From IMG/VR virus record IMGVR_UViG_3300037420_001136, positions 1-64,000 of that record: a stretch of DNA of 64,000 nt. One strand, written 5' to 3'. The stretch is from a virus. The notes beneath the pieces are model-generated. The model ran no database searches. It had not been told where the DNA came from and saw only the letters and a list, made by a program, of their open reading frames with translations. The translations under genes and the position numbers were made by a program. Of this stretch, positions 32,617-57,280 are shown one piece after another. Position 1 is the first letter of the stretch; each line of letters opens with the position of its first letter.

Positions 32617-32855
32617 CCTTCACTGGTGAGACTAAGCTTCCCGTGCCGGTGGACAGAGTTCTGCGACAGGCGCTTGAGGAACACGAACAGAATCCCTTTG
32701 GTAGAGTAATCGTGATCGCCATCTACGAGGATGGTATGAATGAATATTATGCTGCGAGCGAGTCTGACGCTAGTACGCACGTCTGGGATATGCAACGATT
32801 CACACGTTATCTTCACGCGAGGGCAGATGAGCGACTTATTCCCAGTAGCGACTGA
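32598..32855 (+). CDS. Hypothetical protein
   Basis: AAGGAGG RBS; 85 aa. Confidence 0.6.
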   Translation: MAADVLTFTGETKLPVPVDRVLRQALEEHEQNPFGRVIVIAIYEDGMNEYYAASESDASTHVWDMQRFTRYLHARADERLIPSSD

Positions 32856-33375
32856 GTATTCTCCGTACGCGGGCATCGGTAGTCGAGAGACTCCCGAGAG
32901 TATTCAGGGGCTGATGCGCGGCATCGCTCTGTACCTGTACGAGAGGGGCTACACTCTTCGGAGCGGCGGAGCTGAGGGAGCGGATACCGCTTTCGAGCTG
33001 GGAACTCCCGTGATGTCCCTAATGGAGATCTTTCTGCCGTGGGACGGCTTCAACGGAAAGCGAATGACGATTCCCGAGAAGAACCTAGCTCTTGGCGAGG
33101 CTCGCAGTCTGGCCGAGAAATATCACCCGAATTGGGCCGCGTGTTCCGAGGGTGCGAAGAAGATGCACATTCGCAACACCTTCCAAGTCCTCGGTGCTGA
33201 TTGTCACTCGACGGTGAAGTTTGTAGTCTGCTGGACGAAGGATGGGAAGTCCTCCGGCGGAACAGGTCAGGCGCTGCGCATCGCTGAGGATAGGAAGATT
33301 CCCATCTACAATCTTCACGATCAGTCGACGCGAGGCATGTTCTACGAACTGCTGGGCTGGGAGCACAATGTTTAG
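32827..33375 (+). CDS. SLOG-fold DprA/Smf-like protein
   Basis: YAGIGSRETP, LRSGGAEGADTAFE, RN..QVLG, GGTGQALRIA, IPIYNL. Confidence 0.8.
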   Translation: MSDLFPVATEYSPYAGIGSRETPESIQGLMRGIALYLYERGYTLRSGGAEGADTAFELGTPVMSLMEIFLPWDGFNGKRMTIPEKNLALGEARSLAEKYHPNWAACSEGAKKMHIRNTFQVLGADCHSTVKFVVCWTKDGKSSGGTGQALRIAEDRKIPIYNLHDQSTRGMFYELLGWEHNV

Positions 33376-33649
33376 AGATCAAGTGGCTTTCGTATGCGGA
33401 ACGGCAGCTTCTGCGAGAGATATGCAGAAGCGACTTTACGAAACTTCTGACGACTACCGCGAAGGATCTCTATACATAGGATTCGTTCTGCAACGCTGGG
33501 AGGGTTTCAGATTTAAGATGATCGTGATCTCTTCCGAAGCTCGTCAGTTCATGGAATTCAAGATGCGAACTGATGATAAGAGGGAAGTTATCGAGGCTCT
33601 GACTCGACGACTGGATCGAGGAGGCCAGATCATCTGGCAAGAGCTATGA
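33368..33649 (+). CDS. Hypothetical protein
   Basis: ATG 33368 behind GGAG; overlap-coupled to neighbours. Confidence 0.5.
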   Translation: MFRDQVAFVCGTAASARDMQKRLYETSDDYREGSLYIGFVLQRWEGFRFKMIVISSEARQFMEFKMRTDDKREVIEALTRRLDRGGQIIWQEL

Positions 33650-33843
33650 GGCGCTTCCGTCTCATAGCTCCTGGGAACCAGCTAGCCGGTTCCTTCGAGA
33701 TAGACGGACCTCTAGAACACGCGACTCCTTCGTGGCGTGAGCTCGCCGAGGCGGCTGACACTGACAAGACGTTCACCTTCGAGATTAACGACCAGCGCTG
33801 GACTGGCGTTGCTGTGAGAGAAGTCCCTGGATGCGGTTCCTGA
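33646..33843 (+). CDS. Hypothetical protein
   Basis: ATGA-coupled 65 aa ORF; last gene before the non-coding gap. Confidence 0.5.
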   Translation: MRRFRLIAPGNQLAGSFEIDGPLEHATPSWRELAEAADTDKTFTFEINDQRWTGVAVREVPGCGS

Positions 33844-33853
33844 GCATTTTGTG

Positions 33854-33883
33854 CTTGCCGCGCGAGCAGCGCCGTGGCACCTA
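33854..33883 (+). promoter_or_regulatory. Phage promoter motif copy 4 (upstream of the non-coding region)
   Basis: CTTG-ccgcgc-GAGC-agcgccgtgg-CACCTA (weak -10). Confidence 0.5.
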
Positions 33884-34345
33884 GGCCCTAGGCGGCGCTG
33901 GCAGAGCGCATCACAAGCCTCCCGATGTTTTCCTCGCGGACTTCTGACGGGAACTCGAATACTCTGCAAGAGAGCAAGGCATTGAAGTTTGAAGCGTGGA
34001 CCTCGGTCACTCTCCTGTAACAGGGATTGAGCGTTTCTTACGGAGCCGCGATGGACAATGGCGAGGGTTTGGGAGCGCACTAGCTGCGCTCTGCAGAATA
34101 GTCCTCCGGAAGCTTCGGCTGAAGGAAATGCATCCTCCGCTCTCGAACCGGCCCTGGAGGGAAACTTCCGCGAAGCCTCGGCGACGCAGTAGGAAGCGGT
34201 ACCTCTAGGGCCTTCTCTCTTCTTCTCTCGTCGTGTGTCTAGCCCCGCACATGACCACGATGGGAGGCCCGGGAGCTTTCCTCGTCCCGCGAGGAACTTG
34301 AGTGCAGGGATTCACTCTTGGCGCACAGTGTCGTAGCTCCCGCTT
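33884..34345 (+). ncRNA. Candidate ~460-nt structured non-coding RNA (family unknown)
   Basis: Largest gap in a densely coded genome; bounded by two promoter-motif copies; many 7-11 bp helices, including 33901-33910/34085-34094, 33930-33939/34287-34296, 34150-34160/34202-34212 and 34270-34277/34335-34342. Confidence 0.5.
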
Positions 34346-34361
34346 CCTCTCTAAAATAAAA

Positions 34362-34391
34362 CTTGTCCAGCGAGCTGTGCTGAGCTAGAGC
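34362..34391 (+). promoter_or_regulatory. Phage promoter motif copy 5
   Basis: CTTG-tccagc-GAGC-tgtgctgagc-TAGAGC with an upstream A-tract (UP-like). Confidence 0.65.
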
Positions 34392-34430
34392 TCACTAGTC
34401 TAGACTGATCAGACTAGGAAGAGAGTACTC

Positions 34431-34988
34431 ATGCTCGCGTGTCTGTTTGACACCGAAACCACCGGCATCTACGACTATCGCGCTCCGGCTGGGGCCGATC
34501 ATCAGCCGGACGTAGTCCAGCTCTGTGCTATGCTCTGCGATAAGGAGAGAATCTACAGCGCAGTCAATTTGTTCATTCACGCCGACACCGAGATTCCCGA
34601 CGCCGCGTACGAAGTTCATCGCATCGATCGCGCTCTGACCGCGCGAGTTGGAGTAAGCCGTCTCCGCGCCTGTCAGCTCCTGGACAGCATGGCCGCGAAG
34701 GCGGACGAGCTGGTTGGTCACAACATCGACTTTGACGTCAATATGATGATGACCGCCATGATGCGCGAGGGCGGAAAGGGAGCTAATCTCAAGAAGCCTC
34801 GGTTCTGCACCATGAAGTCGGCGGTGGAGCACTGCAAGCTTCCCAATCCGAAGCGTCCTGGAACCTACAAGTGGCCCTCTCTTCAGGAGGCTTACCAGAT
34901 CTTGGTAGACTCCAAGGGCTTCTCCGGCGCTCACGACGCTATGGCCGATGCGAGAGCAACGTATGAGCTCTACCGCATTCTCCGTTAA
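34431..34988 (+). CDS. DEDDh 3'-5' exonuclease (DnaQ-like)
   Basis: FDTETTG, GHNIDFD, CTM, P.L.E, AHDAMADA motifs. Confidence 0.9.
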   Translation: MLACLFDTETTGIYDYRAPAGADHQPDVVQLCAMLCDKERIYSAVNLFIHADTEIPDAAYEVHRIDRALTARVGVSRLRACQLLDSMAAKADELVGHNIDFDVNMMMTAMMREGGKGANLKKPRFCTMKSAVEHCKLPNPKRPGTYKWPSLQEAYQILVDSKGFSGAHDAMADARATYELYRILR

Positions 34989-35472
34989 CGAACTTACCGA
35001 GGAGCTTGCTCTTCAGGTCGCCGAGGCCTTCGTTCTGTGTGACCGAGATCCTACGCGCATGGCGCGAAAGCTCGGCGTAGATCGCTTCGATCTCAATATC
35101 GTCATGCATCCGATGGTGAGGAGCTACATCGTCAAGATGGAGCGGATGACTGTCGTCAGCTGCACGCTGGAAGATCACATGAAGCAGCTCGCGAAGATTC
35201 GTGACGCGGCAATGGATGACGAGAACTACAAGGTTGCTCTGGCAGCCGAGACGCAGCGAGGAAAGGCGGCGGGACACTACGACCCCAAGAAGCTGGATGA
35301 TCCTGCTGACGACGGTAAGCCGATTGACGCCACCAAACTCTCCAGCGAGGAGCTGAGGCGTCGTCTCGCTAAATTCATCGGGGCAAGCATCACCGATCCG
35401 AATGCTCTTCCTCCTCCCGAGCCTGGATCTCTCGAGGGTCAGGCGGCGTTGGACGACGACGATCAGATATGA
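34963..35472 (+). CDS. Terminase small subunit (putative)
   Basis: TLEDHMKQL..IRD.A......AL.AE..RGKAAG.Y motif; ATGA-coupled to TerL. Confidence 0.65.
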   Translation: MSSTAFSVNELTEELALQVAEAFVLCDRDPTRMARKLGVDRFDLNIVMHPMVRSYIVKMERMTVVSCTLEDHMKQLAKIRDAAMDDENYKVALAAETQRGKAAGHYDPKKLDDPADDGKPIDATKLSSEELRRRLAKFIGASITDPNALPPPEPGSLEGQAALDDDDQI

Positions 35473-36905
35473 GCCTAGATGAAGAAGTCCTAATCCGAGA
35501 ACTGCTTCGCCGCGAGGAGGCGAAGATCCACATGGAGAACTTCGTTCCCTATGTGACTGAAGGCATTCATACTCCGGCTCCGCATCACCTCATCGTCTGC
35601 CGTGCTCTTGACGCCGCTCTTCGCGGACAGAAGAAGCGTCTCATCATCGCGATGCCTCCGGCACACGCGAAGTCCGTCTACTCTTCTCACAACTTTCCGG
35701 CCTTCTGGCTCGGCAACAAGCCGAAGGATAAGATCATCGCCGCCTCGCACACGCAGCCGTTCGCGGCTGAGATCGGTGCGAAGGTCAGGAATCTCATCAA
35801 CAACGAGATGTATCGGCGTCTGTTCGAGATTCAGATCAGTCCGGACACCCGAGCCAAGGACAGATGGGACACCACGGCTGGAGGCGAGTACTACACCACC
35901 GGCGTCGGCGGAACTGTCGTCGGTCGCCGCGCGAACTTGATCTTGGTGGACGACCCGTACAAGTCCAAGCTGGTAGCCTACTCCGCCACTGAGAGGAAGA
36001 AGATCTCCGAGTGGTTCTTCGTCGACGTGGTTCCGCGACTTCTTCCCGGCGGTGTCATCGTCATCATCGCTACCCGCTGGCACGAGGATGATCTCACCGG
36101 CGAGGTTCTGAAGAAGTCGGCTGCCGGAGAGATTGAACCCTTCGAACTGATTAGCCTTCCGGCGCTGTGCGAGGATCCCACCCTGCCGTTAGAGATGGAG
36201 CTTGGTCGCAAGTACGGCGATGCTCTGTGGCCGGACATGTATCCCTCGGACAAGCTCATGGAGATCAAGGGCGGTATGTCCGCCGACGGCAATCTCGACG
36301 AGTGGAACGCTCTGTATCAGCAGCATCCGCGTCCCGCCGAGACCGGCGAGGTCAAGGCCGACTGGTTCGAGTACTACGATCGTCTTCCCACTGACGAGCC
36401 ACTCATGAACGTGGTGTCGTGGGATACTGCCGGAACTGCTAACGAGCGCTCGGACTTCACGGTGGGTCTAGCCGCCGCTATGGGTCTCAAGAGCCGCCGC
36501 TTCTGGATGCGGGGAATGTATCGCAAGCAGGCAGAGTTTCACACTCTGATGCGCGACATTCCCTACTTCAACTATCAGCATCAGGCTCACGCAGTTCTCA
36601 TCGAGAACAAGGGCACCGGAACTTCGCTGATTCAGGTTCTTCGCAACTCTGGGCAGAACATCATCCCCATCGCGCCGCAGAAGCTCGGCGACAAGGAGAT
36701 GCGTTTTGAACTCGCTATTCCAGCGATGGAGGCCAAGCGTGTTCTTCTCCCGAAGCGGGCCGACTGGGTTCCTCAGTTCCTCGAGGAGCTCCTCACATTT
36801 CCCGCTGCTGTCCACGACGATATTCCCGACGCATTCTCACAAATGATTAACCACTTCTCGGAGAGAAATGTTCGGCGCGGGGTGCGGCCTCTCGTTGGGG
36901 CGTAA
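35469..36905 (+). CDS. terL: Terminase large subunit
   Basis: RLIIAMPPAHAKS (Walker A-like), G.RANL..VDDP, ATRWHEDDL.G, ALYQQ.P, SWDTA, IENKG.G, HDD..DA nuclease motifs. Confidence 0.93.
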   Translation: MSLDEEVLIRELLRREEAKIHMENFVPYVTEGIHTPAPHHLIVCRALDAALRGQKKRLIIAMPPAHAKSVYSSHNFPAFWLGNKPKDKIIAASHTQPFAAEIGAKVRNLINNEMYRRLFEIQISPDTRAKDRWDTTAGGEYYTTGVGGTVVGRRANLILVDDPYKSKLVAYSATERKKISEWFFVDVVPRLLPGGVIVIIATRWHEDDLTGEVLKKSAAGEIEPFELISLPALCEDPTLPLEMELGRKYGDALWPDMYPSDKLMEIKGGMSADGNLDEWNALYQQHPRPAETGEVKADWFEYYDRLPTDEPLMNVVSWDTAGTANERSDFTVGLAAAMGLKSRRFWMRGMYRKQAEFHTLMRDIPYFNYQHQAHAVLIENKGTGTSLIQVLRNSGQNIIPIAPQKLGDKEMRFELAIPAMEAKRVLLPKRADWVPQFLEELLTFPAAVHDDIPDAFSQMINHFSERNVRRGVRPLVGA

Positions 36906-36975: not shown

Positions 36976-38934
36976 ATGCTTCAGAAGCAGCTCCCGACGC
37001 CGTATCAGAACTTCATTCACAAGTCGCGTTACGCAAGATTCTTAGACGAGTACGGCAGGCGGGAGGACTGGGATGAAACCGTCTCTCGCTACTTCGACTA
37101 CTTCGAGCAAGATCTCGCCGAGCATCACAACTACGTCGTTCCACGAACTCTTCGCTCCGAGCTGGAGGACGCGGTCTCCAATCTGCACGTGATGCCGTCC
37201 ATGCGGGCGATGATGACGGCGGGGGAGGCTCTTCGCCGAGAGAATATCTCTGGCTTCAACTGCGCCTATCTCCCAATCGATCGCCCGAGAGCCTTCGCAG
37301 AAGTTTTGTACATCTTGATGTGCGGAACGGGCGTGGGCTTCAGCGTCGAGCGGCAGATCATCAAGCAGCTTCCGGAAGTGCCGAACGAGTTCTCCGACGT
37401 TCAGGACGAGATTGTAGTCGGCGACAGCAAGCGCGGTTGGGCCGAGGCCTACGAGGAGCTCATCAGACACCTGTACGGCGGCAGGGTGCCTAGGGTAAAC
37501 ACCAGCCTAGTCAGGAAGGCTGGGGAGCGTCTGAAGACGTTCGGAGGACGGGCCAGCGGCCCCAAGCCCCTGCTACAACTGTTTGATTTTACCATCAAGA
37601 TGTTCAAGGACGCCTCGGGACGTAAACTTAACTCCCTGGAAGTCCATGAGATCTGCACCAAGATCGGCGAGGTCGTTGTAGTCGGCGGCGTTCGTCGCAG
37701 TGCGGAGATCAGTCTTAGCAATCTCTCCGATCTTCGTATGCGCGATGCCAAGTCGGGCAACTGGAGTAACGAGAAGCCTCATCTTGCTCTCTCCAACAAC
37801 TCGGTCGCCTACACCGAGAAGCCCGAGGTCGGAGCCTTCATGGAAGAGTGGCTCAGCATCTTCAAGTCCAACAGCGGCGAGCGCGGCATCTTCAATCGCT
37901 ACGGCGCGATCGAGAAGATTCAGCGCTTGGGGCGTCGCGACCACAACTATGAGTTCGGCACCAATCCGTGCGGCGAGATTATTCTGCGGCCCCGTGGCCT
38001 CTGCAATCTTTCGGAGGCGGTAATTCGCGAGAACGATAGCGCCAAGGATATTCGCGAGAAGATTCGTCTCGCGGCCATCATCGGAACTTGGCAGTCTACC
38101 CAGACGCGCTACAACTTCGTAGAACCGGATTGGGCGAAGAATGCCCTGGAGGAGCGTCTCCTCGGCGTCAGCCTGACCGGCATTTACGACAATGCTCTCA
38201 TGCGCGGCGAGCAAGGTCTGGACAAGCTGGCGAACAATCTTCAGCACATGAAGCAGACGGCCATCAAAGCTAATCGCGTCGCGGCCAGCGAAATTGGGAT
38301 TAATCCCAGCGTCGCTGTGACGACCATCAAGCCGAGTGGAACGGTCAGCCAGCTCGTGAACTGCCCCTCGGGGATTCACCAAGGTCATGCTGCGTACTAC
38401 ATTCGTCGCATCTCGCAGGATAACAAGGATCCGGTTACACGGTTCATGGGCGACGCGGGAATTCCAAACGAGCCGCACGACGCCAAGCCGCAGGATATGA
38501 CAGTCTTCAGCTTCCCGATGCGTCTGGGAAGCACGACGGTCACTCGCGATCAGATCACAGCCATCGAGCATCTGGAGCTGGTCAGGACGTACAATCTCAA
38601 CTGGTCTGAGCATGCAGTCAGCTGCACCATCTCCGTCAAGGAGCACGAGTGGCCCGAGGTCGGTGGATGGGTCTACAAGAACTTCGACCTTCTCGCCGGC
38701 GTCAGCTTCCTGCCGCACTTTGAGGCGAGCAGCACCTATACTCAACTTCCGTACGAGACTATCGACAAAGCAACGTACGAGATGCTTGCAGCCGAGATTC
38801 CGGACGACATTGACTGGACTCAGCTGGAACTTTACGAGAAGGGTATCGACACCGTAGAAGGAACACGAGAATTTGCCTGCGTCGGCAACATCTGCGAGAT
38901 TGTCGAGCGCACCACTCCTATCGCAGCGGAGTAA
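36976..38934 (+). CDS. nrdJ: Class II (adenosylcobalamin-dependent) ribonucleotide reductase
   Basis: PSMR, FNCAY, GTGVGFS, VGGVRRSA, TNPCGEI, TTIKPSGTVS and C-terminal CVGNIC; no beta-subunit gene nearby. Confidence 0.92.
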   Translation: MLQKQLPTPYQNFIHKSRYARFLDEYGRREDWDETVSRYFDYFEQDLAEHHNYVVPRTLRSELEDAVSNLHVMPSMRAMMTAGEALRRENISGFNCAYLPIDRPRAFAEVLYILMCGTGVGFSVERQIIKQLPEVPNEFSDVQDEIVVGDSKRGWAEAYEELIRHLYGGRVPRVNTSLVRKAGERLKTFGGRASGPKPLLQLFDFTIKMFKDASGRKLNSLEVHEICTKIGEVVVVGGVRRSAEISLSNLSDLRMRDAKSGNWSNEKPHLALSNNSVAYTEKPEVGAFMEEWLSIFKSNSGERGIFNRYGAIEKIQRLGRRDHNYEFGTNPCGEIILRPRGLCNLSEAVIRENDSAKDIREKIRLAAIIGTWQSTQTRYNFVEPDWAKNALEERLLGVSLTGIYDNALMRGEQGLDKLANNLQHMKQTAIKANRVAASEIGINPSVAVTTIKPSGTVSQLVNCPSGIHQGHAAYYIRRISQDNKDPVTRFMGDAGIPNEPHDAKPQDMTVFSFPMRLGSTTVTRDQITAIEHLELVRTYNLNWSEHAVSCTISVKEHEWPEVGGWVYKNFDLLAGVSFLPHFEASSTYTQLPYETIDKATYEMLAAEIPDDIDWTQLELYEKGIDTVEGTREFACVGNICEIVERTTPIAAE

Positions 38935-47601: not shown

Positions 47602-47766
47602 TGCCTTGCTCCTTGCTATTGTAGAAAACGCCTTGGGCGCTTTGGCCCTTATGGCACCTTGGCGCTCCGGACGCAACTCATTTGCACCTGTGCGCTTGCA
47701 TCTTGGCCTAACTTGCGCTAGGGTTGACAGGCTGCGATTATTAGTCTGACGAGAGCCTGGAGTTCC

Positions 47767-50238
47767 ATGGCAGAGAGCCTGTTTGCCGATTTTCTGAAGT
47801 CCTCCCTGGACGTTAAGTCCATCAACGACTTCTTTGTCCAGAACCGCAACAAGACGCAGGAAGTACTCCAGCGACTTAGACCAGAAGGTCGAGTAGACGG
47901 TGGACGATTCAAGCTAGCCTCTGTTGAGGGTGGCGCAGGCTCCAGCTTCGACTACAATCTTCAGAACGGTCACTGGGGCGACTGGGCCGCGAACGACTCG
48001 CACCACGGGCTCGTGGGCTTCGTCTGTGCGACGATGAAGTGTTCCTCGGCACAGGCGATCCAATTCCTCATTGACGAGAAGTATCTCGATGCCAAAGAAG
48101 TCAAGAAGGTTCTCGCTGCCTCGGAAGGCGATCCTCTCGTATTTCCAATACCGGAGGACCAGCAAGACTGGGAGTTTGTTCTACAGTCAGATCCGCTTCG
48201 AAAAGATCGCGGCATCCTTCGCGAGCACTGGACCTTTCGTGACGTTGACGGATCCCTTCTCGGGTACAAGTATCGTGTAGACTCCCGTAATACGAATAAG
48301 GAAGTCTACACCCTCACATATCGCGGACACTCCGGCTGGGTGAAGAAGGATTGGGCTAAGAAGATCGTACCACCATACGGACTCGAGCAGCTCGGCGACG
48401 GTACCCCGACGGTTCGTATTCTCTTCGTGGAGGGCGAGAAGGCTAAGGACAAGGCGCAGGAACTCTTCGGCGAACGCTGGAAGGTTCTCTCCTACAGCGG
48501 CGTCAAGGGCAGTCACGATCTATGGCTTCCTGACGAGGCGTTCTGGCAGGACGCAGAGGTCGTCATCTGGCCAGACAACGACACACCGGGAAGAGAAGCA
48601 TCTCGTCGCATTCAACTTCTTCTCCAGGGACAGAAGTTCAAACCACGCGAGATCCGTATCGTACGAGTTGAGACGATTCCAGGATTATCTCCGGGCTGGG
48701 ATCTTGGCGACTACGACGACTCTACTCCAATAGATCCGGACGTAGAGCTGGAGCGCGCCGAGGCGGTAGACTCCTTTGAGCACGTATGTCGCCAGTGGGT
48801 CTACGTCGCCAAGGAAGATAAGTTCTACAATCTCGAAGATCGCGAGATTATTCTCACACCCGCCGCCTTCGATCGTTATCTCACTCGCTACGGCGATAAG
48901 TCCGGTTCCGCCAGCAAGAAGTTTCTCTCTGACTTGGACACTCACAAGTGCGAAGATCTGGACTTTCTCCCAGGCGTCGGCACCTTCATCAAAACTCCGG
49001 CTGGTAAGGTTCTTCTCAACGAATGGTATCCCTCGGCTGTATATTCTCGCGCGACGGAACTTGCTGGAGATCTCAGCGTCTCGGACGAAGAGATCGAAGA
49101 GAAGGCGAAGTACTTCATCGCACATCTCAACCGAGTAAGTGGGAACGAAGTCGTAGAACCTGAGAAGAATGCTGACGGACTACCAATCCTAGGTACGGAG
49201 CAACGGCTTCTCAGAGACGCTCTGGCGTTCTACTTTCACAACGTAATCTCACGTCCTATGGACAAGCAGGGTTGGTTCCCTGTTCTCGTGTCGGAGCACA
49301 ACGGCACCGGCAAATCGTACTTCCGACGTGTCATGGCCGCGCTTCTTGGCGGGAAGCGCGTTCAGGAGCTAACTGTCCAGGAATACGTCTCTGACTACCA
49401 AGACTGGATGGATGGGACACTCTTCTACGAGTTGGGCGAGGTTAAGAGTCACGACTCGGCTGAGGTTTACGAGCTGCTGAAGAAGAATCACAGCTACCTT
49501 CCATTCAACGACACCGATCTTCGCGACCGCTCTCAAGGCAATCGCCACATCAACATCAAGGGCACGAAGAAAAAGCTCCAGCGTAACTTCCTCAACGGCT
49601 TCATGACTTCCAACGACTTGTTCCCGCTGGCGCTGGCGAATAGCTCCGGTCTGGAGGGCAGCGATCGTCGCCTGTTAGCTGTGAACTGCGAGCAAATCTT
49701 AACCGAGGTGGAGGCCGATCAGCTCTTCGACGAGCTTAACGAGAATGCGGCATACATCGGCGCTTGGCTGCTGAGATTTAAGTCACCCTGCCCTTGGAAT
49801 CCTGGCTGGGCACCAATCACGAAGCACAAGCGGCGCATGCTCGAGAAGGATCGCGAGCGCAGTGAAAATCGTGCCGACAAGTACGAGCTCGGCAAGTTCG
49901 ATGAATTCTACCATCTCGTCAGGTGGGCCATAGAAGAGAAGATTGGGTTGTTCGCGCGACGAGTTCAGACGGCAGAGGGTATTCGCGAGTTGTGCGAGGC
50001 TAGACGGGTTAAGTTCCCGTGGGACATGGGACGATTCGAGCGCATTCTAGAGAAGGCTGGTCTCTTCAAAGGCCCCGTAATCGTGGTGGAGGGCCAGATG
50101 AAGAAGACCTACTCAGCCAATCCAGAGATGGAGGGTAAGCCGGCGACTGATTGGATCAAGGCTTCCAAGGAGCCTATCAACTCCACGAAGCCTCAGCGCG
50201 GCAAGGACAAGGATAACTCAGGCGGGGGCCACTTCTAA
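47767..50238 (+). CDS. Primase-helicase (Toprim primase + SF3/NrS-1-like helicase)
   Basis: W.DWA N-terminal domain; FVEGEKA, IWPDND.PG and GWDLGD Toprim motifs; HNGTGKS Walker A; HINIKG and TSN motifs. Confidence 0.85.
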   Translation: MAESLFADFLKSSLDVKSINDFFVQNRNKTQEVLQRLRPEGRVDGGRFKLASVEGGAGSSFDYNLQNGHWGDWAANDSHHGLVGFVCATMKCSSAQAIQFLIDEKYLDAKEVKKVLAASEGDPLVFPIPEDQQDWEFVLQSDPLRKDRGILREHWTFRDVDGSLLGYKYRVDSRNTNKEVYTLTYRGHSGWVKKDWAKKIVPPYGLEQLGDGTPTVRILFVEGEKAKDKAQELFGERWKVLSYSGVKGSHDLWLPDEAFWQDAEVVIWPDNDTPGREASRRIQLLLQGQKFKPREIRIVRVETIPGLSPGWDLGDYDDSTPIDPDVELERAEAVDSFEHVCRQWVYVAKEDKFYNLEDREIILTPAAFDRYLTRYGDKSGSASKKFLSDLDTHKCEDLDFLPGVGTFIKTPAGKVLLNEWYPSAVYSRATELAGDLSVSDEEIEEKAKYFIAHLNRVSGNEVVEPEKNADGLPILGTEQRLLRDALAFYFHNVISRPMDKQGWFPVLVSEHNGTGKSYFRRVMAALLGGKRVQELTVQEYVSDYQDWMDGTLFYELGEVKSHDSAEVYELLKKNHSYLPFNDTDLRDRSQGNRHINIKGTKKKLQRNFLNGFMTSNDLFPLALANSSGLEGSDRRLLAVNCEQILTEVEADQLFDELNENAAYIGAWLLRFKSPCPWNPGWAPITKHKRRMLEKDRERSENRADKYELGKFDEFYHLVRWAIEEKIGLFARRVQTAEGIRELCEARRVKFPWDMGRFERILEKAGLFKGPVIVVEGQMKKTYSANPEMEGKPATDWIKASKEPINSTKPQRGKDKDNSGGGHF

Positions 50239-50242
50239 ATCC

Positions 50243-50689
50243 TTAGGTGGTCTGGAATCTCCCTAAGAATTCTCTAAGTGACTGCTCGATAAAGAGTTTA
50301 TTAGCGTAGGAATTATAGTAACGATTACGTCCGCTAGGATGTGGAATGATCAGCACATCCTTGTGGGCGTACCCGAAGGGCTGATAACGAAAGTTCTGTG
50401 GTAGAGCCATCGCAGCATCTCGCCCGAGGACGATGAACCTAGCTTCGTTCACACAGCGAAGCTTCTCCAAGCGCTTCTTCATACGCTCGCGAACTTCGGG
50501 TGCCGTCGTGGGAGTCGTGTGGTCGTCCACCACGTTGTAGCGTATCGTCTCGTTGAGGTACTCTTCCTGAGACATTCCCAGCATCTTCATCAGTCTCGCC
50601 GCCGCTCCCGTCGTCGTATGTGGAAACAGTGGCCGAGCTGGATCCGTGTTCGGCCCCGGACGCTCGCCGAATATGATTATCTTAGTCAT
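50243..50689 (-). CDS. Uracil-DNA glycosylase superfamily protein
   Basis: IFGERPG, G.A.RL...LG, YN, IVLGRDA and PHPSGRNR.YN motifs. Confidence 0.7.
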   Translation of the reverse strand: MTKIIIFGERPGPNTDPARPLFPHTTTGAAARLMKMLGMSQEEYLNETIRYNVVDDHTTPTTAPEVRERMKKRLEKLRCVNEARFIVLGRDAAMALPQNFRYQPFGYAHKDVLIIPHPSGRNRYYNSYANKLFIEQSLREFLGRFQTT

Positions 50690-50704
50690 AGTGCACAGAA
50701 ACAC

Positions 50705-50977
50705 CTACAGAGTTCCCTTGATCTTTCTGAAGCGCGGCTGTGTCACAGACGAGGCTGACGGACTCACCGCACTGTTGAACTCCGTCTCGGGGCGAAGCCA
50801 GACCTGCCGTTCGTGTGGATAGCAGTGCATGTACGCGACTAAGAACTGGCCTCGTCCATTTCTCGCCTGCTGGCCGGTCTCGGCATCCATCGCCGGTCCA
50901 AGATAGCGATAAAGTCCGCCCTTGTAGTGCTGATGCGTGGCGTCAGGCGCTAAGACTCTTAGTCGGTCGTCGCTCAT
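50705..50977 (-). CDS. DUF1653-like protein
   Basis: HYKGGLY....A.DAET...V.Y......WLRP..EF....RF; start uncertain. Confidence 0.65.
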   Translation of the reverse strand: MSDDRLRVLAPDATHQHYKGGLYRYLGPAMDAETGQQARNGRGQFLVAYMHCYPHERQVWLRPETEFNSAVSPSASSVTQPRFRKIKGTL

Positions 50978-51248
50978 TCCAACGAGCTCTGAGTGATGCA
51001 CGAAACTCCTCCTGATCTGCATTGGTAGGTTCTCTCGTTGACCCAAGTTCCGAGGTAGCTTGAGCCATGCGTCTTCCAGGCTCGTTCACCTCGAACCCAT
51101 AGTACGTGTAGTAGATCCGTGCTCCGTAGCGCGTGTGCATCTTCTGCCAGGACTTCTGCATCTCCACGTAGATTTCCGCCTTCCACTCAACGTCGAAGAC
51201 GCAGTCCGGATAGTCGTTAGACATTACGACGAAGATCTTAGCCATCAA
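50943..51248 (-). CDS. Hypothetical protein
   Basis: GGAGGG RBS; operon order. Confidence 0.5.
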   Translation of the reverse strand: MMAKIFVVMSNDYPDCVFDVEWKAEIYVEMQKSWQKMHTRYGARIYYTYYGFEVNEPGRRMAQATSELGSTREPTNADQEEFRASLRARWNERRPTKSLSA

Positions 51249-51534
51249 TCATACCCTCCGGCACCTGCTCTAAGCGATAGCTGGTTCCCGCGTAGCCCAC
51301 TTGCTCTTGTGTTCCTGCCCAGATCTTCGCAGCGGCGACGACGTCCTCGTCACGACCTCCCGAGATTTTAACATCGAGAGCTTTGAAGAGTACCTCGAGG
51401 CTGGGCTTCTCCGACCACCACGCCACCAGATTATTATCCGGCTGATCGTAGTTGTTGTCTACGCTGAAGAGACACCAGATGGTCTTCTCATCAGCTGCGA
51501 TGACGCGCTCGCGCTTTCTTGACTGCCTTGCCAT
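51238..51534 (-). CDS. Hypothetical protein
   Basis: 98 aa immediately downstream of promoter copy 10 (possibly leaderless). Confidence 0.55.
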   Translation of the reverse strand: MARQSRKRERVIAADEKTIWCLFSVDNNYDQPDNNLVAWWSEKPSLEVLFKALDVKISGGRDEDVVAAAKIWAGTQEQVGYAGTSYRLEQVPEGMIDG

Positions 51535-51540
51535 ATACCT

Positions 51541-51570
51541 AGGCTAGTGCCGCGGCATTCGCACCGCAAG
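51541..51570 (-). promoter_or_regulatory. Phage promoter motif copy 10
   Basis: Minus strand CTTG-cggtgc-GAAT-gccgcggcac-TAGCCT. Confidence 0.6.
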
Positions 51571-51572
51571 CA

Positions 51573-52034
51573 TCATGTGCTCTGGGCGCACACGTCCGGA
51601 TGGTAGAAGAGAGGAAACTGCGTAAGTCTTACGAGCAAGATCTCGCCCATCTTGATCTCGTGCTTGAGTCTACACGGATAGCCGCACTCCCCGCATCTCC
51701 CCTCCATGGTTCCCTCGCTCGAGTGCTTGATGGAGCCGAAGTACTTCCAGGCGCTTGGACTCATGGGATGGCCCGTGACCTGAATACCGCAGGCGGGACA
51801 CTTAATCTCGTTGGCGATGGTGCGAATAGGATCAGCGAAGGCTGCGAGATATCGTTCAATCGCCTCGAACCAGTCCGGATGCTGGCGGAGCTCGTCCATA
51901 CCCTTCGGCCACAAATGCTCGGGCCGACAGATGGTCATCTCGTGAGCGAGGACGACTCCGTTAAAAGTCTTGACTGGATGCTCTTCTTCCCTGGACGGGA
52001 TCTCGAGGTGATCAGGTATTTTTGCTTCTGTCAT
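51573..52034 (-). CDS. Zinc-ribbon hypothetical protein
   Basis: CPACG ... EGRCGECGYP.R..H. Confidence 0.55.
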   Translation of the reverse strand: MTEAKIPDHLEIPSREEEHPVKTFNGVVLAHEMTICRPEHLWPKGMDELRQHPDWFEAIERYLAAFADPIRTIANEIKCPACGIQVTGHPMSPSAWKYFGSIKHSSEGTMEGRCGECGYPCRLKHEIKMGEILLVRLTQFPLFYHPDVCAQST

Positions 52035-52470
52035 AGTATCCCGGTGGTATCTTCTGTAGGGTTATAGGGTCTCGCCCCTGCTCACGCCAGAAGTTCTGAC
52101 ACGTGGCTACAAATCGCGCCATGTGAAATTCTTCCTGACGAAGCTGGCACAGGAAGTTTTGAATTATCAGACACACAATGTCGTCTGAGGAGCCGATGCC
52201 AAAGCGTCTCATATAATGACGAGGAAGAGGGAAGGATCTATCCTCGAGATACCAGCTTCTCTTGAGATGATCTCCCAAGGGACGATGGAGACTCTTCAGC
52301 GTCGACACCCCGTAGAGCTCCTTCTTCATCACGTCCGACCAAGGTGCGTGATGAAGACACCACAGAGCATTCTCGTGAGTGAGTGGGAAGGTGTGCGAGA
52401 AGTCAACGGACATTACAACCTCCGTCGCGCCCAAGTGCTCCACACTACGCTCATGAGCAGGCATTGACAA
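52012..52470 (-). CDS. Hypothetical protein (DUF6794-like)
   Basis: H..LG..L...W.L.......GI...DD pattern. Confidence 0.5.
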   Translation of the reverse strand: MSMPAHERSVEHLGATEVVMSVDFSHTFPLTHENALWCLHHAPWSDVMKKELYGVSTLKSLHRPLGDHLKRSWYLEDRSFPLPRHYMRRFGIGSSDDIVCLIIQNFLCQLRQEEFHMARFVATCQNFWREQGRDPITLQKIPPGYYDRSKNT

Positions 52471-52471
52471 G

Positions 52472-52756
52472 CTACTCCGACTTCTGAAACAGCCTGCCGG
52501 TGCCGAACTGACGGGCTACCTGCACGGCCGACTTTATGCTTCTAATGAAGCGAGGCGTCGTCATTCTCTTTGTGGTCTTCTCGGCCACAGCGTTGAGATG
52601 ATTCAGGGACGCAATGATGACGATCATCTGGTCACGAATGGGGAGATCTTTGGTAGCCTCGACCTGCATCTGCTGGAAGGCTATCATGAGACGATTCGTG
52701 ACGGGCTGAAGCCTCTCTAAATCCTTAGTATCACAGTCTAAAAAGAGATCAGCCAT
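52472..52756 (-). CDS. Hypothetical protein
   Basis: Helical ORF; ATG 52756 preferred over TTG 52810. Confidence 0.45.
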   Translation of the reverse strand: MADLFLDCDTKDLERLQPVTNRLMIAFQQMQVEATKDLPIRDQMIVIIASLNHLNAVAEKTTKRMTTPRFIRSIKSAVQVARQFGTGRLFQKSE

Positions 52757-52938
52757 GCTAGCGAGCTTGTTTGGAGCAGCTGTCGAGCTGCCGCCCGTAG
52801 GGTAGGCCAAGGGCGGGCAGTTTGGAGGGTTTCCGAAGCCCCGTAGATGCGTCTCTAAGCGCGTCGCCTAGGGCGCGGGTACCTAGGGCAGCGGCCAGCG
52901 TTGCGTAAGGGTCTACGAGCATTCTACGCGCCTCGCTT

Positions 52939-53235
52939 TTAGGCATCGATGATCTGCTGGATCCAAGGACAGTGCGGTCCATGGACGCGCAGCACTTCCT
53001 CGTTTGGACGATTCTTGAGATCTTCATACCACGACTCAGCCTCCTCGGTGAAGATCTCCTCGTGTTCGTCGGTCTCCATCAGATGGCCGGCGAAGTTGCA
53101 CACCGAGCTTCGCGGGCTGGCGTACCGATCATCTTGGAATGGAGGCTCCGAGATGTGAGCGGGAACCGCGTGTCCCATATTGCTGATAGCGAACGCGGCC
53201 GACAGACGACAAAGCTTCCCGTGGGGCAGATCCAC
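52939..53235 (-). CDS. Hypothetical protein
   Basis: AGGAGA RBS; Cys/His motifs. Confidence 0.5.
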   Translation of the reverse strand: MDLPHGKLCRLSAAFAISNMGHAVPAHISEPPFQDDRYASPRSSVCNFAGHLMETDEHEEIFTEEAESWYEDLKNRPNEEVLRVHGPHCPWIQQIIDA

Positions 53236-53248
53236 CTGACTTCTCCTA

Positions 53249-53743
53249 CTAGACTAATGACAGACGTAAACGCTCGTACTCTTCGAGCTGGTCGTCTTGC
53301 AGCCCCATCCCGCTCTCTGTACGAATGGACTCCAGCCACTCTAGGCGACGCTGGTTGGCTACGTTCTGCGGACTGGTCTTCTCGTCGTCTCCTGTGAGGA
53401 TCCAGTCCTCAAAGAAGTCGTTTAGGAACAACGAGGCCAGACCGAGGTCTGAGTTGCGATTCTCTATCGCCTTCATCTCGTGATACTCGCCGTTGCAGAA
53501 GCTATATAGCTCGCTGTCAAGATAGGCGTCTGGCCTCACGTGTGCGGGCAGTGGCTCCGACTCTGGCGCTCGTTCCGTCGCGCTGAGAGTACCGATGGCG
53601 GCGTTGATCTTTTCCAGATGTGCGCTCCAGCGATCAGGAACTTCTCGCACAGGCTGAGGAATAGCCATCACGCCTCGAGTCTCCTCGTCGACGCAGTTCA
53701 TAGCCTTGATTATATGCGGGTGAGTCTCAGCGTTGATTATCAT
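53249..53743 (-). CDS. Hypothetical protein
   Basis: 164 aa, acidic, ATGA-coupled. Confidence 0.55.
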   Translation of the reverse strand: MIINAETHPHIIKAMNCVDEETRGVMAIPQPVREVPDRWSAHLEKINAAIGTLSATERAPESEPLPAHVRPDAYLDSELYSFCNGEYHEMKAIENRNSDLGLASLFLNDFFEDWILTGDDEKTSPQNVANQRRLEWLESIRTESGMGLQDDQLEEYERLRLSLV

Positions 53744-53973
53744 GCCACCTTATCCTTCGGGGAACTAAGTAGTCTCTCCATCTGCGTCTGGAGATCGCAC
53801 CACCCGTGGAACGCGATGATAGCTCCATCGGGCCACCGTTCGCACTCTGCGAGAATTATGTACTTCTTGTCCTCGGACCTCCGGATATAGCTTCCCTCGT
53901 CTCGCGCCATCTCGCGACACTTACCTCGAGCCCTATCCTCCTCAGGGGTTCTCTGTCCCCGCCTCGTCCTCAT
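53740..53973 (-). CDS. Hypothetical protein
   Basis: 77 aa in operon order. Confidence 0.4.
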   Translation of the reverse strand: MRTRRGQRTPEEDRARGKCREMARDEGSYIRRSEDKKYIILAECERWPDGAIIAFHGWCDLQTQMERLLSSPKDKVA

Positions 53974-54045
53974 CGTCTTCTTCTTCAGCCTGCTCGGCTA
54001 GGCGAATTCTGTCCAACTCGCTCATAGCCTTAGCAGAAGGTTCAG

Positions 54046-54234
54046 TCATCTTATCTCGCTGGAACCTCTCGCTCTCAGCAAGTCTCTTCGCCTCCTCGGC
54101 AGCGTCGCGATGCGTACGGAGAGGCGTGTTGCGAAGATCCCCAGCCAACCGAACGCCAGTATCCAGGCGATCAGCTCTGCGATTAGCCACTCCGGAGGAA
54201 TCCCTAGGCGCTCTTTTAGGGAGGGGTCGAGCAT
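54046..54234 (-). CDS. Small membrane protein
   Basis: One hydrophobic segment followed by a basic tail. Confidence 0.4.
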   Translation of the reverse strand: MLDPSLKERLGIPPEWLIAELIAWILAFGWLGIFATRLSVRIATLPRRRRDLLRARGSSEIR

Positions 54235-54246
54235 CCTCGGGATCCT

Positions 54247-54552
54247 TCACGACTCGCTCTCTTCCGGAGGACCCATCCCACGAAACCATCTGCTCTTCTC
54301 CGGAGTCTCGCGAAATGTACTCTCCTCGCGATATCCTGGTCGCTGATCTTCCTGCTCGCTGTAGTCGACGACCTCCATGGAGGCGATCAGATCGACTGGA
54401 AACACGAGCTCCTTGGACTCGGCCCCTGTTGGAATTAGATCGTGCGGAAGCTCGAGACGAACGAACGATCCTTCAGCCGACCACAGCTCGACCTCTGTCT
54501 TCAGAGGCTCCCGCGACTCGTCTCGCCAGACGATGGTAATCTTCGTAGGCAT
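54247..54552 (-). CDS. Hypothetical protein
   Basis: TGATG-coupled to the upstream gene. Confidence 0.5.
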   Translation of the reverse strand: MPTKITIVWRDESREPLKTEVELWSAEGSFVRLELPHDLIPTGAESKELVFPVDLIASMEVVDYSEQEDQRPGYREESTFRETPEKSRWFRGMGPPEESES

Positions 54553-55046
54553 CAGTGCCCTCGCGCCAGAAAGGCCAGAAGATCTTCCGGACTGTCGAAG
54601 CTGAGAACGTCGCCCAGACCCGGAATGTGGGTGCGATGAACTCCTCCGCGAATCTCGTCACGATTCCGATCTGCTGCGGCCTTGTTCAGCCTCTCAATTA
54701 GGAACGGCTCCTTCGTCTGGGAGCAGCTCGTCACGAACGTCTTCGTAGGCTCGTGCGCTCCGGCCAGACAAACAGTCAGTCCCTTCAGGACGCCTTGGAT
54801 GACGGGGTCGCTGTCGTAGGAGCCGCTCAGCACAGCGTGGATCTGCATCCTGTCGGTGGGATGCTCGGGCTGGCCTTGCTCGTAGGCCGTCTGCATTATC
54901 TGCTGATGAATGTTGCCTGCCAGCACTCGAACGAAGTTCATCACTTCTTCGTTCGTCACCAGCTCCTGCATCGCTTGACGATTCGCCTTGGCCTGAGGGC
55001 TGTCTCCATGAGAGAGGCAGTTAGGATTTCCGCAACTGTGCGACAT
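54552..55046 (-). CDS. Hypothetical protein
   Basis: AAGGAGA RBS; N-terminal HxCxxxxCxxH; first gene after promoter copy 11. Confidence 0.6.
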   Translation of the reverse strand: MSHSCGNPNCLSHGDSPQAKANRQAMQELVTNEEVMNFVRVLAGNIHQQIMQTAYEQGQPEHPTDRMQIHAVLSGSYDSDPVIQGVLKGLTVCLAGAHEPTKTFVTSCSQTKEPFLIERLNKAAADRNRDEIRGGVHRTHIPGLGDVLSFDSPEDLLAFLARGH

Positions 55047-55075
55047 GGGAAGACTCTCCTTTACCTACAGCCTAC

Positions 55076-55105
55076 AGCATAAGGGCGCGTTGCTCCAGCC
55101 GCAAG
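55076..55105 (-). promoter_or_regulatory. Phage promoter motif copy 11
   Basis: Minus strand CTTG-cggctg-GAGC-aacgcgccct-TATGCT. Confidence 0.7.
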
Positions 55106-55121
55106 GCTGGACTTGTCAAGG

Positions 55122-55694
55122 CTAGCTGGGACGAGCGTCGCTGCTGCGGCCTAGCTTCTGGAAAAGGGGAATTCGGCCTCCCTTAAGCGCTGGGCCATCC
55201 ATCTCACCGCATCCACGTCCCGGAACATTCTCGTTCTCAGATCGGAAGCCGACAAAGTCCTTCCAATGACGCCAGCCGCTCCGACAGTGGAAGCCCCAGT
55301 GACGCCACACCGGTCCGGTGAAGAACAGGGTAATAACTGGTTCATCTTGCCGGACAACGAGGCGATGTGCTGCCGAAGGGCCGCGAACTCGTAGATGTCC
55401 CTCTGTGAGTGGTGCCGTCTGCTCAACTCCGCCAGCCGCGATTGTAACTTCCTGATACGCTCCTCGTACGAGCAGCGACATATTGATCCATGGATGGTCA
55501 TGGAGAGCCTCGTCCCTGTCACTCTTGATGATCTTGTGGAGATAAAGGTTGAACCACTTGTTTCGCGGGATCACCCACCATCTAATGAGGTACGGATCCT
55601 CGCGGCCACCGATGAAGAAGTCGGCCTCACGACTACTCATGACGTGATCACACCAACGCTGGATACGAGATAGCATGAAGCGAGGAATTCTCAT
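55122..55694 (-). CDS. Cupin-fold protein
   Basis: YL.RW, LH....SD.D.ALHDHPW...S....G.Y.E, HR and TLF.TGP....WGF motifs. Confidence 0.75.
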   Translation of the reverse strand: MRIPRFMLSRIQRWCDHVMSSREADFFIGGREDPYLIRWWVIPRNKWFNLYLHKIIKSDRDEALHDHPWINMSLLVRGAYQEVTIAAGGVEQTAPLTEGHLRVRGPSAAHRLVVRQDEPVITLFFTGPVWRHWGFHCRSGWRHWKDFVGFRSENENVPGRGCGEMDGPALKGGRIPLFQKLGRSSDARPS

Positions 55695-55843
55695 TGCTAT
55701 TTTCCCTTATTGAAGTCCTGCTCAGAGCGACGAACAAGCTCGCGCTCGATCATCTCTGCCGTCGCGTGCGCTCCCAACTCAATTGCTCTGTGCATCTGCT
55801 CACGGAGTTCCTCCGTCGAGCGTTCCGTTATTCCAAAGCGCAC

Positions 55844-56146
55844 TCATACCCCCACTCGTATCGTTCTAGTGTCGCCTCCGCACCGAGGACATTTTGCTTC
55901 CATTTCTTGCTGCGGCGTCTGTACCTCGTCGCTGTACTGAGCGTTCCACCCGCAGAACTTCTCTCTGAGCTGGGTGACGTGACGGCACTTGCGACGGAAC
56001 ATGAAGCCGTCGCACTCGCAGCTATCCATCGTCTCGTCGTTCGTTACGACGACGTGATAAGTTCTGTCACCCTTGGAGCTCGGTACGTCCTCGCTCAAAC
56101 CGTCGAGGGCGCAGATCTGCACATACTCTATCGTGAGATCAGGCAC
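55844..56146 (-). CDS. SWIM zinc-finger protein
   Basis: Y.V......SCECDGF.FR.KCRHV plus a C-terminal CPRCG. Confidence 0.75.
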   Translation of the reverse strand: MPDLTIEYVQICALDGLSEDVPSSKGDRTYHVVVTNDETMDSCECDGFMFRRKCRHVTQLREKFCGWNAQYSDEVQTPQQEMEAKCPRCGGDTRTIRVGV

Positions 56147-56408
56147 CGATCGCGTCCAGGTCGTTTCGAGTGACTTGAGAGCCGTTCACACACTTCGCGG
56201 CGTCGATGCGGACGGTCAAGTCGTCGATCGCCTGCTGAATACCTTTCTTCCCCGCCGGATACTTCTTACCCGTGATGTTACCCGCCGTTCGGCGACAGTT
56301 GGTCGAGGTATAGGCTCGATTCAGCTTAAAACCCTTCTGCAGAGCTTTGAGGCCGCTCCGGACTGCCAGAGCCTGATAGAGCCGAGGCCCGTCTAGTACT
56401 TCACTCAT
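56139..56408 (-). CDS. Hypothetical basic protein
   Basis: AAGGAGG RBS; first gene after promoter copy 12. Confidence 0.6.
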   Translation of the reverse strand: MSEVLDGPRLYQALAVRSGLKALQKGFKLNRAYTSTNCRRTAGNITGKKYPAGKKGIQQAIDDLTVRIDAAKCVNGSQVTRNDLDAIGA

Positions 56409-56432
56409 GGGGTTATCCTCCTTTGCACCGCC

Positions 56433-56462
56433 AGTATGGCGCGGGGTTGCTCCTAACGCAAC
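56433..56462 (-). promoter_or_regulatory. Phage promoter motif copy 12
   Basis: Minus strand GTTG-cgttag-GAGC-aaccccgcgc-CATACT. Confidence 0.7.
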
Positions 56463-56701
56463 GGGCGTTTAGTCTGCCGACCACCTACGTTGTCGCCAAG
56501 ATCCTCGTCACGGATTGTGTAGCGGCTGTTGGAGATGCTGTCGAGAATAGTCTCCACAGCATCGTCCCTCGCCTGCTTTGAGTTGTATGCCTCGGCAGAG
56601 TCGCCCATGACGTTTCCGTTGATGTGGCGAAATCTCCAGTACCAGCGACGAGGGCCGATTCCACCGACGCGACGACTGTACTTCTCAATCTTCAGAGGCA
56701 T
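56453..56701 (-). CDS. YegP/DUF1508-like protein
   Basis: WYWRF...NG.V...SAE.Y.SK....DAV motif. Confidence 0.65.
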   Translation of the reverse strand: MPLKIEKYSRRVGGIGPRRWYWRFRHINGNVMGDSAEAYNSKQARDDAVETILDSISNSRYTIRDEDLGDNVGGRQTKRPLR

Positions 56702-56960
56702 ACAACTCTCCCTGCTTTCCTGACTTGACGAGATTTAAGATCTTGAGACCTGCGTGCTGTGTGCAGAGCCTCTGATCTCCCACTATCCAGCGAGCATGTC
56801 GCATACAGGTTCGCGGGTCGAGACCATTCTGACGACTGCGAGTCTCGCGATAACCAGCCCAATAAATCTCCTTCAGCTCGACCTGCGGAAGCTCGCACTG
56901 AATCTTCTCGTACGGAGGTCCGTCCAACTCTATGACGGTTGGAAGGCGAAGATCACCCAC
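56685..56960 (-). CDS. Hypothetical protein (Cys/His motif)
   Basis: QC......C.R.A.......LC.QHAG. Confidence 0.5.
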   Translation of the reverse strand: MGDLRLPTVIELDGPPYEKIQCELPQVELKEIYWAGYRETRSRQNGLDPRTCMRHARWIVGDQRLCTQHAGLKILNLVKSGKQGELYASED

Positions 56961-57117
56961 GGATGAGCTTCCCGAGACCGAAGAAGACGATCATCAGGAA
57001 CCATCCGAAGAAGAGTAGTACGACGATTCCCAGGAACCAGTGGACTGTGAACCAAGCGAGGAGTATCTCCAGACGTCCCGGAGGGCAGGTGTAGAGATCG
57101 CTGACGTAATCGTTCAT
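56953..57117 (-). CDS. Small membrane protein (54 aa)
   Basis: MNDYVSDLYTCPPGRLEILLAWFTVHWFLGIVVLLFFGWFLMIVFFGLGKLIRG; ATGA-coupled. Confidence 0.45.
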   Translation of the reverse strand: MNDYVSDLYTCPPGRLEILLAWFTVHWFLGIVVLLFFGWFLMIVFFGLGKLIRG

Positions 57118-57278: not shown

Positions 57279-57280
57279 TC

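Follow-up and report, generated by a model that had tools for sequence, protein, structure and literature searches.

Cis-acting phage RNAs that operate on transcription include the put antiterminator of HK022 and the sib retroregulator of lambda. Other phage RNAs with which a structured non-coding region may be compared are ROOL and GOLLD, which are large, ornate, phage-associated non-coding RNAs of several hundred nucleotides (nt) (PMC5737381; bioRxiv 10.1101/2024.12.08.627333), and the pRNA of phi29, a phage-encoded prohead or packaging RNA that is built as a junction and carries two loops with mutual complementarity (PMC2241910, PMC3753930). Here we describe a 587-nt gap (33844-34430) between the stop codon of a 65-amino-acid (aa) open reading frame (ORF) and the start of a DEDDh/RNase_T exonuclease gene in the IMG/VR virus record IMGVR_UViG_3300037420_001136. 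Throughout, the window is the whole stretch of DNA that was analysed, namely the first 64 kb of this 91,890-bp record, which has a terminal repeat of 127 nt. Our main finding is that the 3' part of the gap contains a multi-branch junction whose helices P1-P3 covary between related phages, and which is the only part of the gap demonstrably under selection for RNA secondary structure. We give roughly an even chance to the reading in which the gap is transcribed rightwards into a clade-specific non-coding RNA or leader, with this three- or four-way junction as its conserved part, standing in a terminator slot and acting in cis.

An earlier interpretation, made by a model from the letters of the window (hereafter the sequence-only reading), had proposed that the gap encodes a large structured RNA with its own promoter, and that a multi-branch 3' domain is closed by the helix 34270-34277/34335-34342. 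This 3' domain was strongly confirmed. As delimited by a covariance model, RNAalifold and minimum free energy (MFE) folding, it comprises the following parts:

34262-34348, + strand: junction domain, ~87 nt
34262-67/34343-48: helix P1a
34270-77/34335-42: helix P1b
34278-84/34290-96: helix P2, loop TCCCG
34300-04/34313-17: helix P3, loop CAGGGATT
34320-24/34328-32: helix P4, weak and not supported

The covariance model (R1) was built from the window and one close relative, L002, without a second relative, L003. When R1 was used to search 264 kb of related loci, it returned a single foreign match, at the syntenic position in L003 (3826-3929; 26.5 bits, rough E ~6e-6), while a model of the same alignment that used sequence only (R2) did not find the L003 copy at E<=10. 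In the alignment with L003, 98% of cells were paired and 11 pairs had changed on both sides, as against 0-1 in slid controls, and the observed values for pairing and covariation were reached in 0 of 500 shuffles. RNAalifold, which makes its own structure prediction, recovered P1a, P1b, P2 and P3 with 12 compensatory pairs, and did not recover helix P4. No pair of P1-P3 is broken between the window and L003, and the two sequences, folded separately, have the same MFE architecture (z -2.63 and -3.03). The loops UCCCG of P2 and GGGA of P3 are conserved and are complementary to one another over 4-5 nt in both lineages, without covariation, raising the possibility that the two loops are in contact. 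The presence of G.U pairs in P1a in both lineages, the asymmetry of junction folding in the window (z -2.63 for the + strand, -0.83 for the - strand) and the direction of the neighbouring genes together lean towards the + strand. Further copies of the domain were found neither in ~860 kb of other loci, searched with model R3, nor in the whole 91.9-kb genome, searched with R1.

In the reading that we favour, a transcript would begin at one copy of a promoter-like motif and run rightwards to the junction, ahead of a second copy of the motif, with these elements along the way:

33854-33883, + strand: promoter-motif copy P4, with CTTG at 33854, a -35-like TTGCCG (33855-33860), a GAGC box, a 17-nt spacer and a weak -10-like CACCTA (33878-33883)
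33889-33922, + strand: conserved 5' segment of the putative transcript, ~85% identical in L003 (blastn and alignments)
33923-34201, + strand: lineage-specific expansion of local hairpins, 279 nt, with no counterpart in L003
34211-34229, + strand: all-pyrimidine CU tract, 19 nt; L003 has a CU tract of different sequence at the same relative position
34362-34391, + strand: promoter-motif copy P5, with -35 TTGTCC (34363-68), a 17-nt spacer and a -10-like TAGAGC (34386-91)

Under this proposal, the conserved 5' segment would be followed by the expansion, which would be free to vary, then by a pyrimidine-rich linker and finally by the ~87-nt junction. The transcript from P4 is presumably a discrete one, and the junction may form its folded 3' end, where, acting in cis, it would stop or stabilise the transcript at the point where the replication unit of transcription gives way to the packaging unit; the complementary loops UCCC(G) and GGGA could serve to lock the fold or to bind a partner. 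Lying at the switch between replication and packaging genes, the junction would offer a way to study how such phages delimit their transcripts, or set the timing of packaging, in the absence of a canonical terminator.

The position of the junction bears directly on this proposal. In the related loci L004-6, L068, L152 and L154, a GC-rich hairpin followed by a T run, that is, a canonical terminator, lies directly before a P5-like promoter of the exonuclease gene. The junction domain occupies that slot in the window and in L003, with 14 nt between the end of its 3' strand and the -35 element of P5. It resembles the terminators of the relatives in lying a few bases before a TTGTCA-type exonuclease promoter and in having a GC-rich closing stem and a pyrimidine-rich tail. 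It differs from them in that its 'loop' consists of two covarying hairpins with conserved loops together with a variable arm, that its tail is CUUCCUCUCU and not a U run, and that its stem extends 6 bp further into the tail; the tail after P1b, CTTCCTCTCT, is pyrimidine-rich and not U-rich. An intrinsic (Rho-independent) terminator was therefore not accepted: the junction is equivalent in position, and the combination of a GC-rich hairpin with a U-rich tract is not there. Canonical terminator scans over 40 kb gave no excess over shuffles and so carry no weight either way.

The same equivalence of position is a first point in favour of the main rival to the RNA reading, which is well alive, if the less probable of the two. 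It holds that there is no separate RNA gene and that the gap is a regulatory spacer between operons, in which the junction is an elaborated terminator or insulator against upstream read-through, the two promoters carry CTAG-rich operators, and the 279 nt in between are neutral filler. Two extra covarying arms and conserved loops, however, are more than a plain terminator requires, and the missing U tract after the junction counts against the spacer as well. Further evidence on both sides of it is given below with the variation of the gap, its folding energy and its promoter copies.

Several observations weigh against our favoured reading of a P4 transcript ending in the junction. The domain has been found in only two independent lineages (window/L002 and L003), so that its covariation amounts to a single pairwise comparison in an alignment that was fitted to the model. 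P1b, P2 and P3 are purely Watson-Crick, and the call of the strand thus rests on P1a and on folding energies. The putative RNA as a whole shows no unusual stability (z -1.23 for the window, -0.75 for L003). A terminator scan of 33000-35500 found none, and P1 has no U-rich tail behind it; a generic sigma-70 scan calls no promoter at P4 or P5; and the -10-like hexamers of both copies (CACCTA in P4, TAGAGC in P5) are poor.

With respect to described RNA families, a search of the whole window with Infernal cmscan against Rfam 15 gave no match at the gathering threshold, ROOL, GOLLD, pRNA and tRNA (transfer RNA) included, and at E<=10 an 801-nt region and the 126-nt stretch around the domain (34240-34365) gave only chance matches to unrelated families. 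Since there is no Rfam match, the element belongs to none of ROOL, GOLLD, pRNA, tRNA or the riboswitch families of Rfam, and it is a candidate for a new RNA motif of narrow distribution. If it is a functional RNA, it would be an unclassified motif from an uncultured soil and rhizosphere phage lineage whose large terminase is ~36% identical to the closest cultured one. For now its practical value is limited by that narrow distribution (three contigs).

The sequence-only reading had likened the RNA in scale to ROOL and GOLLD, a comparison that did not survive. Like them, the gap RNA would be phage-associated, non-coding and several hundred nt long. Unlike them, it has no covariance-model match, its conserved core is far smaller, more than half of its length is dispensable between close strains, and evidence of multimerisation is absent. 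Where ROOL and GOLLD have a large conserved fold (~600-800 nt), here 279 nt are absent in L003 and 66 nt are replaced in L002, and no 460-nt fold is conserved; the conserved core comes to ~190-220 nt, including the one covarying domain of ~87 nt.

The phi29 pRNA is closer in form, being likewise a junction with two loops complementary over 4-5 nt, encoded next to packaging genes. The differences are that this phage has a conventional large terminase and that the loop complementarity is conserved here without covariation and could equally be intramolecular; the lack of an Rfam match separates the two as well. We regard it as unlikely that the junction is the core of a new phage RNA class acting through its two complementary loops, either as a pRNA-like multimer near the packaging machinery or in cis, by reprogramming RNA polymerase or the fate of the transcript at the exonuclease-terminase operon, with the upstream expansion as a freely evolving peripheral domain.

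In size and outline, the junction also recalls phage tRNA and tRNA-like genes, with a span of 73 nt from P1b to P1b and a cloverleaf-like topology. It is unlike them in that ARAGORN and Rfam RF00005 (E<=10, 34240-34365) find nothing, and in that neither the lengths of its arms nor its loops match those of D, anticodon and T arms. ARAGORN finds no tRNA gene in the window or in the whole 91.9-kb genome, the ORFs of which read well under the standard code; L004 and L154, in contrast, do carry tRNAs. These have the anticodon CTA, of the amber-suppressor type (L004 1482-1556 and L154 1820-1895, found by ARAGORN; Rfam tRNA scores 51.4 and 45.3 bits). The distant relative L154 also has, ahead of the terminator, promoter and exonuclease gene in the corresponding intergenic slot, a tRNA-like sequence whose anticodon loop is enlarged (2258-2334); its Rfam tRNA score of 28.1 bits falls just short of the gathering score (29). 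The put and sib RNAs share with the junction a compact multi-hairpin form and a place between a phage promoter and an operon, from which they act on the fate of the transcript; the difference is that no terminators to be overridden were identified downstream of the junction.

Our view of what is conserved in the gap derives from its relatives. The gap sequence was found in only two other lineages, L002 and L003, when IMG/VR, JGI/ENA metagenomes and GTDB genomes were scanned: pattern scans of IMG/VR with three conserved stretches returned contigs of these two alone, protein-guided scans of all three collections added no carrier, and blastn of 33600-34700 gave no match among GenBank phages. At least 23 exonuclease clusters at 76-89% identity exist in a large protein database; the comparison of the gap was confined to the window and these two lineages. 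In L002, whose exonuclease is 100% identical, the gap is complete apart from 33980-34045, in place of which there are 8 nt, and over the last 385 nt of the gap L002 is 96.6% identical to the window. L003, whose exonuclease is 89% identical, shares sequence at 33853-33922 and 34361-34421 only; closer alignment reveals collinear, diverged homology from 34202 on, in the order CTCTAGGG, pyrimidine tract, CTAG, ATGAC and then the 3' domain.

The joints 33979->34046 and 33922->34361 are present in contigs of soil DNA. Contigs from four soil runs show the window, L002 and L003 forms of the gap side by side in the same soil and rhizosphere metagenomes, with the L003 form ~10x deeper than the other two. 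Given this co-occurrence, the middle of the gap can be dispensed with, and differs by insertions and deletions among members of a single phage population. A middle that is replaced or deleted between co-occurring strains speaks for the regulatory-spacer alternative, in which it would be neutral filler. Two local structures within this variable part bear on that point:

34068-34098, + strand: hairpin with stem GAGCGCA/TGCGCTC; identical dot-bracket shape in the window (z -2.9) and L002 (z -3.2)
34150-34212, + strand: 11-bp helix GGCCCTGGAGG/CCTCTAGGGCC enclosing a small hairpin; z -4.46, MFE frequency 0.91

Five upper pairs of the first hairpin differ in L002 without a change of shape, a difference most readily accounted for by insertion of an A into one arm and of a T at the opposite position, together with a shorter loop. 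In the second, L002 has only two substitutions (34207 A>G and 34211 C>T); the resulting U.G and G.U pairs are workable on the + strand only. These matched indels and wobble changes count against neutral filler, and lend weaker support to the idea that the hairpins of the variable part may be kept as RNA structure. As to the CU tract that follows, in both the window and L002 it is complementary to the exonuclease ribosome-binding site (RBS; -16.5 kcal/mol, P~0.01-0.02); this pairing is absent in L003, and a cis-acting anti-RBS role was for that reason not adopted.

The larger model of the sequence-only reading was that of a ~460-nt switchable, pseudoknotted or multimerising RNA, in which the 3' strands at 34085, 34205, 34262 and 34287 would pair either with 5' segments within 33884-33939 or with local partners. 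Every complementary segment that it listed proved to be exact, coordinates included. In addition, long exact inverted repeats are in modest excess in the gap (maximal repeats of >=9 nt: 4 against 0.88 expected from dinucleotide shuffles, P=0.013; of >=10 nt: 2 against 0.24, P=0.025), placing it in the top 2-3% of native 587-nt windows, and the MFE structure of the putative RNA in the window uses 33901/34085. In L002, however, this pair is broken, with GCAGA alone remaining, and one-sided changes break 33917/34262 and 33930/34287 while the local rival pairings stay intact. The sole long-range pair to survive in L002 is 33884/34205, by way of two G.U pairs, and L003 keeps neither it nor 33917/34262. 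Furthermore, one arm each of 33901/34085 and 33930/34287 lies within the stretch that is wholly absent from L003 (33923-34201), and the L003 change 34267 G>A is compensated within the local helix P1a and not in the partner at 33917.

The geometry is also unfavourable: the pairs 33884/34205, 33917/34262 and 33930/34287 follow one another in parallel order, such that each crosses the others, and the arm 33884-33891, since it abuts the -10-like hexamer 33878-33883, would lie at or before the likely start of the transcript. An internal duplication was considered as the origin of the long-range complementarity and rejected, there being no significant long alignment between the two halves of the gap, either direct (P=0.70 against shuffles) or inverted (P=0.14). 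With three of the four long-range pairs broken in a relative, and three crossing one another, a switchable giant RNA is not supported, and we hold it to be very improbable. Covariation in syntenic relatives thus upholds the 3' domain (P1-P3) and not the long-range pairs. The case is a cautionary one, in that exact long-range complementarity within a single sequence mimicked a riboswitch-style toggle that was gone once two relatives were compared.

What remained of the original proposal of a structured non-coding RNA, once the large switchable fold had been set aside, was the absence of coding function, a promoter motif with no gene behind it, structure on the + strand and the covarying 3' domain. 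As it had noted, no ORF-free stretch of the window is longer than the gap, the runner-up measuring ~255 nt, and the gap holds no convincing ORF. Pfam and PHROG gave no match for the 70-aa ORF 33996-34208, the translation of which would have spoken against an RNA gene, or for an antisense 122-aa ORF. L002 lacks the start of the 70-aa ORF, whose frame is moreover shifted there by a 1-nt indel and whose stop codon is altered. Six-frame tblastn of the gap against all fetched related loci detected no protein remnant, and recoding (TAG=Q or TGA=W) opened no convincing ORF. On these grounds, the gap is non-coding. A small protein, from the 70-aa ORF or from another short ORF, is accordingly the least probable of the explanations that we weighed. 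In its favour, an 80-aa ORF of L002 shares ~38 codons of the same frame, with a single substitution there that is synonymous; the shared frame is reached only through the 1-nt indel, however, L003 lacks the region, the product is rich in Arg, with codons such as CGG, AGG, AGA, ATA and CGA (read by eye), and there is no convincing RBS.

The folding energy of the gap, a further check on the proposed RNA, is better than that of shuffled controls on the + strand by a modest amount (z -2.23, as against -0.80 on the - strand). Relative to 159 native windows corrected for GC content, it falls in the lowest 5% on the + strand (z -1.7; - strand, -0.25). This statistical signal is real but weak, as chance alone would yield ~2-3 such windows per genome, and folding that is only marginally above background agrees with the spacer alternative. 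The CsrA-sponge idea was dismissed, GGA not being significantly enriched in the gap (17 against 11.2, P~0.09); the count of GGGA is raised (7 against 2.2).

We now turn to the promoter-like copies at both ends of the RNA region. The sequence-only reading had placed the gap between the fourth and fifth copies of a promoter motif, and two exact copies of CTTG-N6-GAGC do flank the region, at 33854 (P4) and 34362 (P5). Matches to CTTG-N6-GAGC-N4-CNG with <=1 mismatch number 18, against 8.2 expected. The minus-strand members of the family have the form CTTGCG-N4-GAGC-N~10-CATAMTGGC, with which P4 aligns, and are located at 47645-59798 (-); a + strand copy lies at 20593. P4 is 81% identical in L003, and the arrangement ACTTGTCAA-N~17-TAnnnT upstream of the exonuclease gene is kept in L003, L004-6, L152, L154 and L155, down to 53% protein identity. 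We infer that P4 and P5 are active as promoters. Every other inspected copy of the motif has an RBS and start codon within <=~45 nt behind it, P4 being the sole exception with 540 nt and no gene; a promoter copy with no gene behind it is something that the spacer leaves unexplained. A sigma-54 reading of TGGCAC in P4 was rejected, the GC element not being at the required spacing (read from the sequence).

The gap is also exceptional in its density of CTAG, with 9 sites against a mean of 1.5 per 587 nt, a count that no other window of this size in the 91.9-kb genome reaches. The sites and nearby candidate signals are as follows:

33881, 33888, 34081, 34206, 34240, 34386, 34396, 34401, 34414: CTAG sites
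34395-34417, between P5 and the RBS: CTAG-rich imperfect palindrome CTAGTCT..AGACTAG centred on TGATCA; CTAGACTGATCAGACTAG
34417-34433, + strand: purine-rich RBS GGAAGAGAG and ATG of the DEDDh exonuclease gene

Two tandem CCTAGGC repeats (33880-33893) follow P4, and 6 of the 9 CTAG sites cluster at P4 and P5; in L003 the sites are distributed likewise. This enrichment and clustering at both promoter copies suggests that the CTAG sites may be operators for a shared regulator, as the spacer alternative supposes. The palindrome 34395-34417 is conserved in L003 and L004 (exonuclease identity 83-89%), and is probably an operator to which a protein would bind, or else a hairpin of the 5' untranslated region.

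Lastly among the alternatives, the gap might act as DNA, as a replication origin or packaging (pac) site that folds as single-stranded DNA or is recognised as a duplex; this we consider improbable. The idea draws on the terminase genes 500-1000 bp downstream of the gap, on a cumulative GC skew that peaks at ~33-38 kb and on the succession of a promoter and non-coding DNA, an arrangement found in R-loop-type phage origins. The skew plateau, however, follows a switch in gene orientation near 39.8 kb, and the gap has neither iterons nor a stretch of AT-rich DNA for unwinding, with a GC content (0.58) equal to that of the genome. Duplex recognition sites, moreover, do not covary as base pairs, so that the covariation of the junction argues for a single-stranded fold, and the G.U pairs together with the strand asymmetry of folding favour RNA. 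A more origin-like region of the same genome lies outside the window at ~80.15-80.9 kb. This region (~80150-80900) is repeat-rich and A/C-skewed, with repeated GCTTGGCAA and CGCCAACACAA, several CTAG sites, a promoter-like box CACTTGTCAA and an ambiguous ORF content.

All genes in the neighbourhood of the gap lie on the + strand:

upstream of the DprA-like gene, + strand: Dda-like helicase gene
32740-33375, + strand: gene for a DprA-like protein
after the DprA-like gene, + strand: two small ORFs, the second of 65 aa with its stop at 33843
33844-34430: the non-coding gap
34431-34988, + strand: DEDDh/RNase_T exonuclease gene
between the exonuclease and large terminase genes, + strand: 174-aa ORF
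35469-36905, + strand: large terminase gene

The large terminase is at best ~36% identical to those of cultured phages, the top matches being phages of Sphingobium, Erythrobacter and related alphaproteobacteria. DNA of the phage is present in soil and rhizosphere metagenomes, and the public sequencing runs listed for its sequence are DNA runs, with no RNA run among them. Directly after the large terminase gene lies a gene for a class II-like ribonucleotide reductase (36976-38934), an unusual neighbour for a packaging gene.

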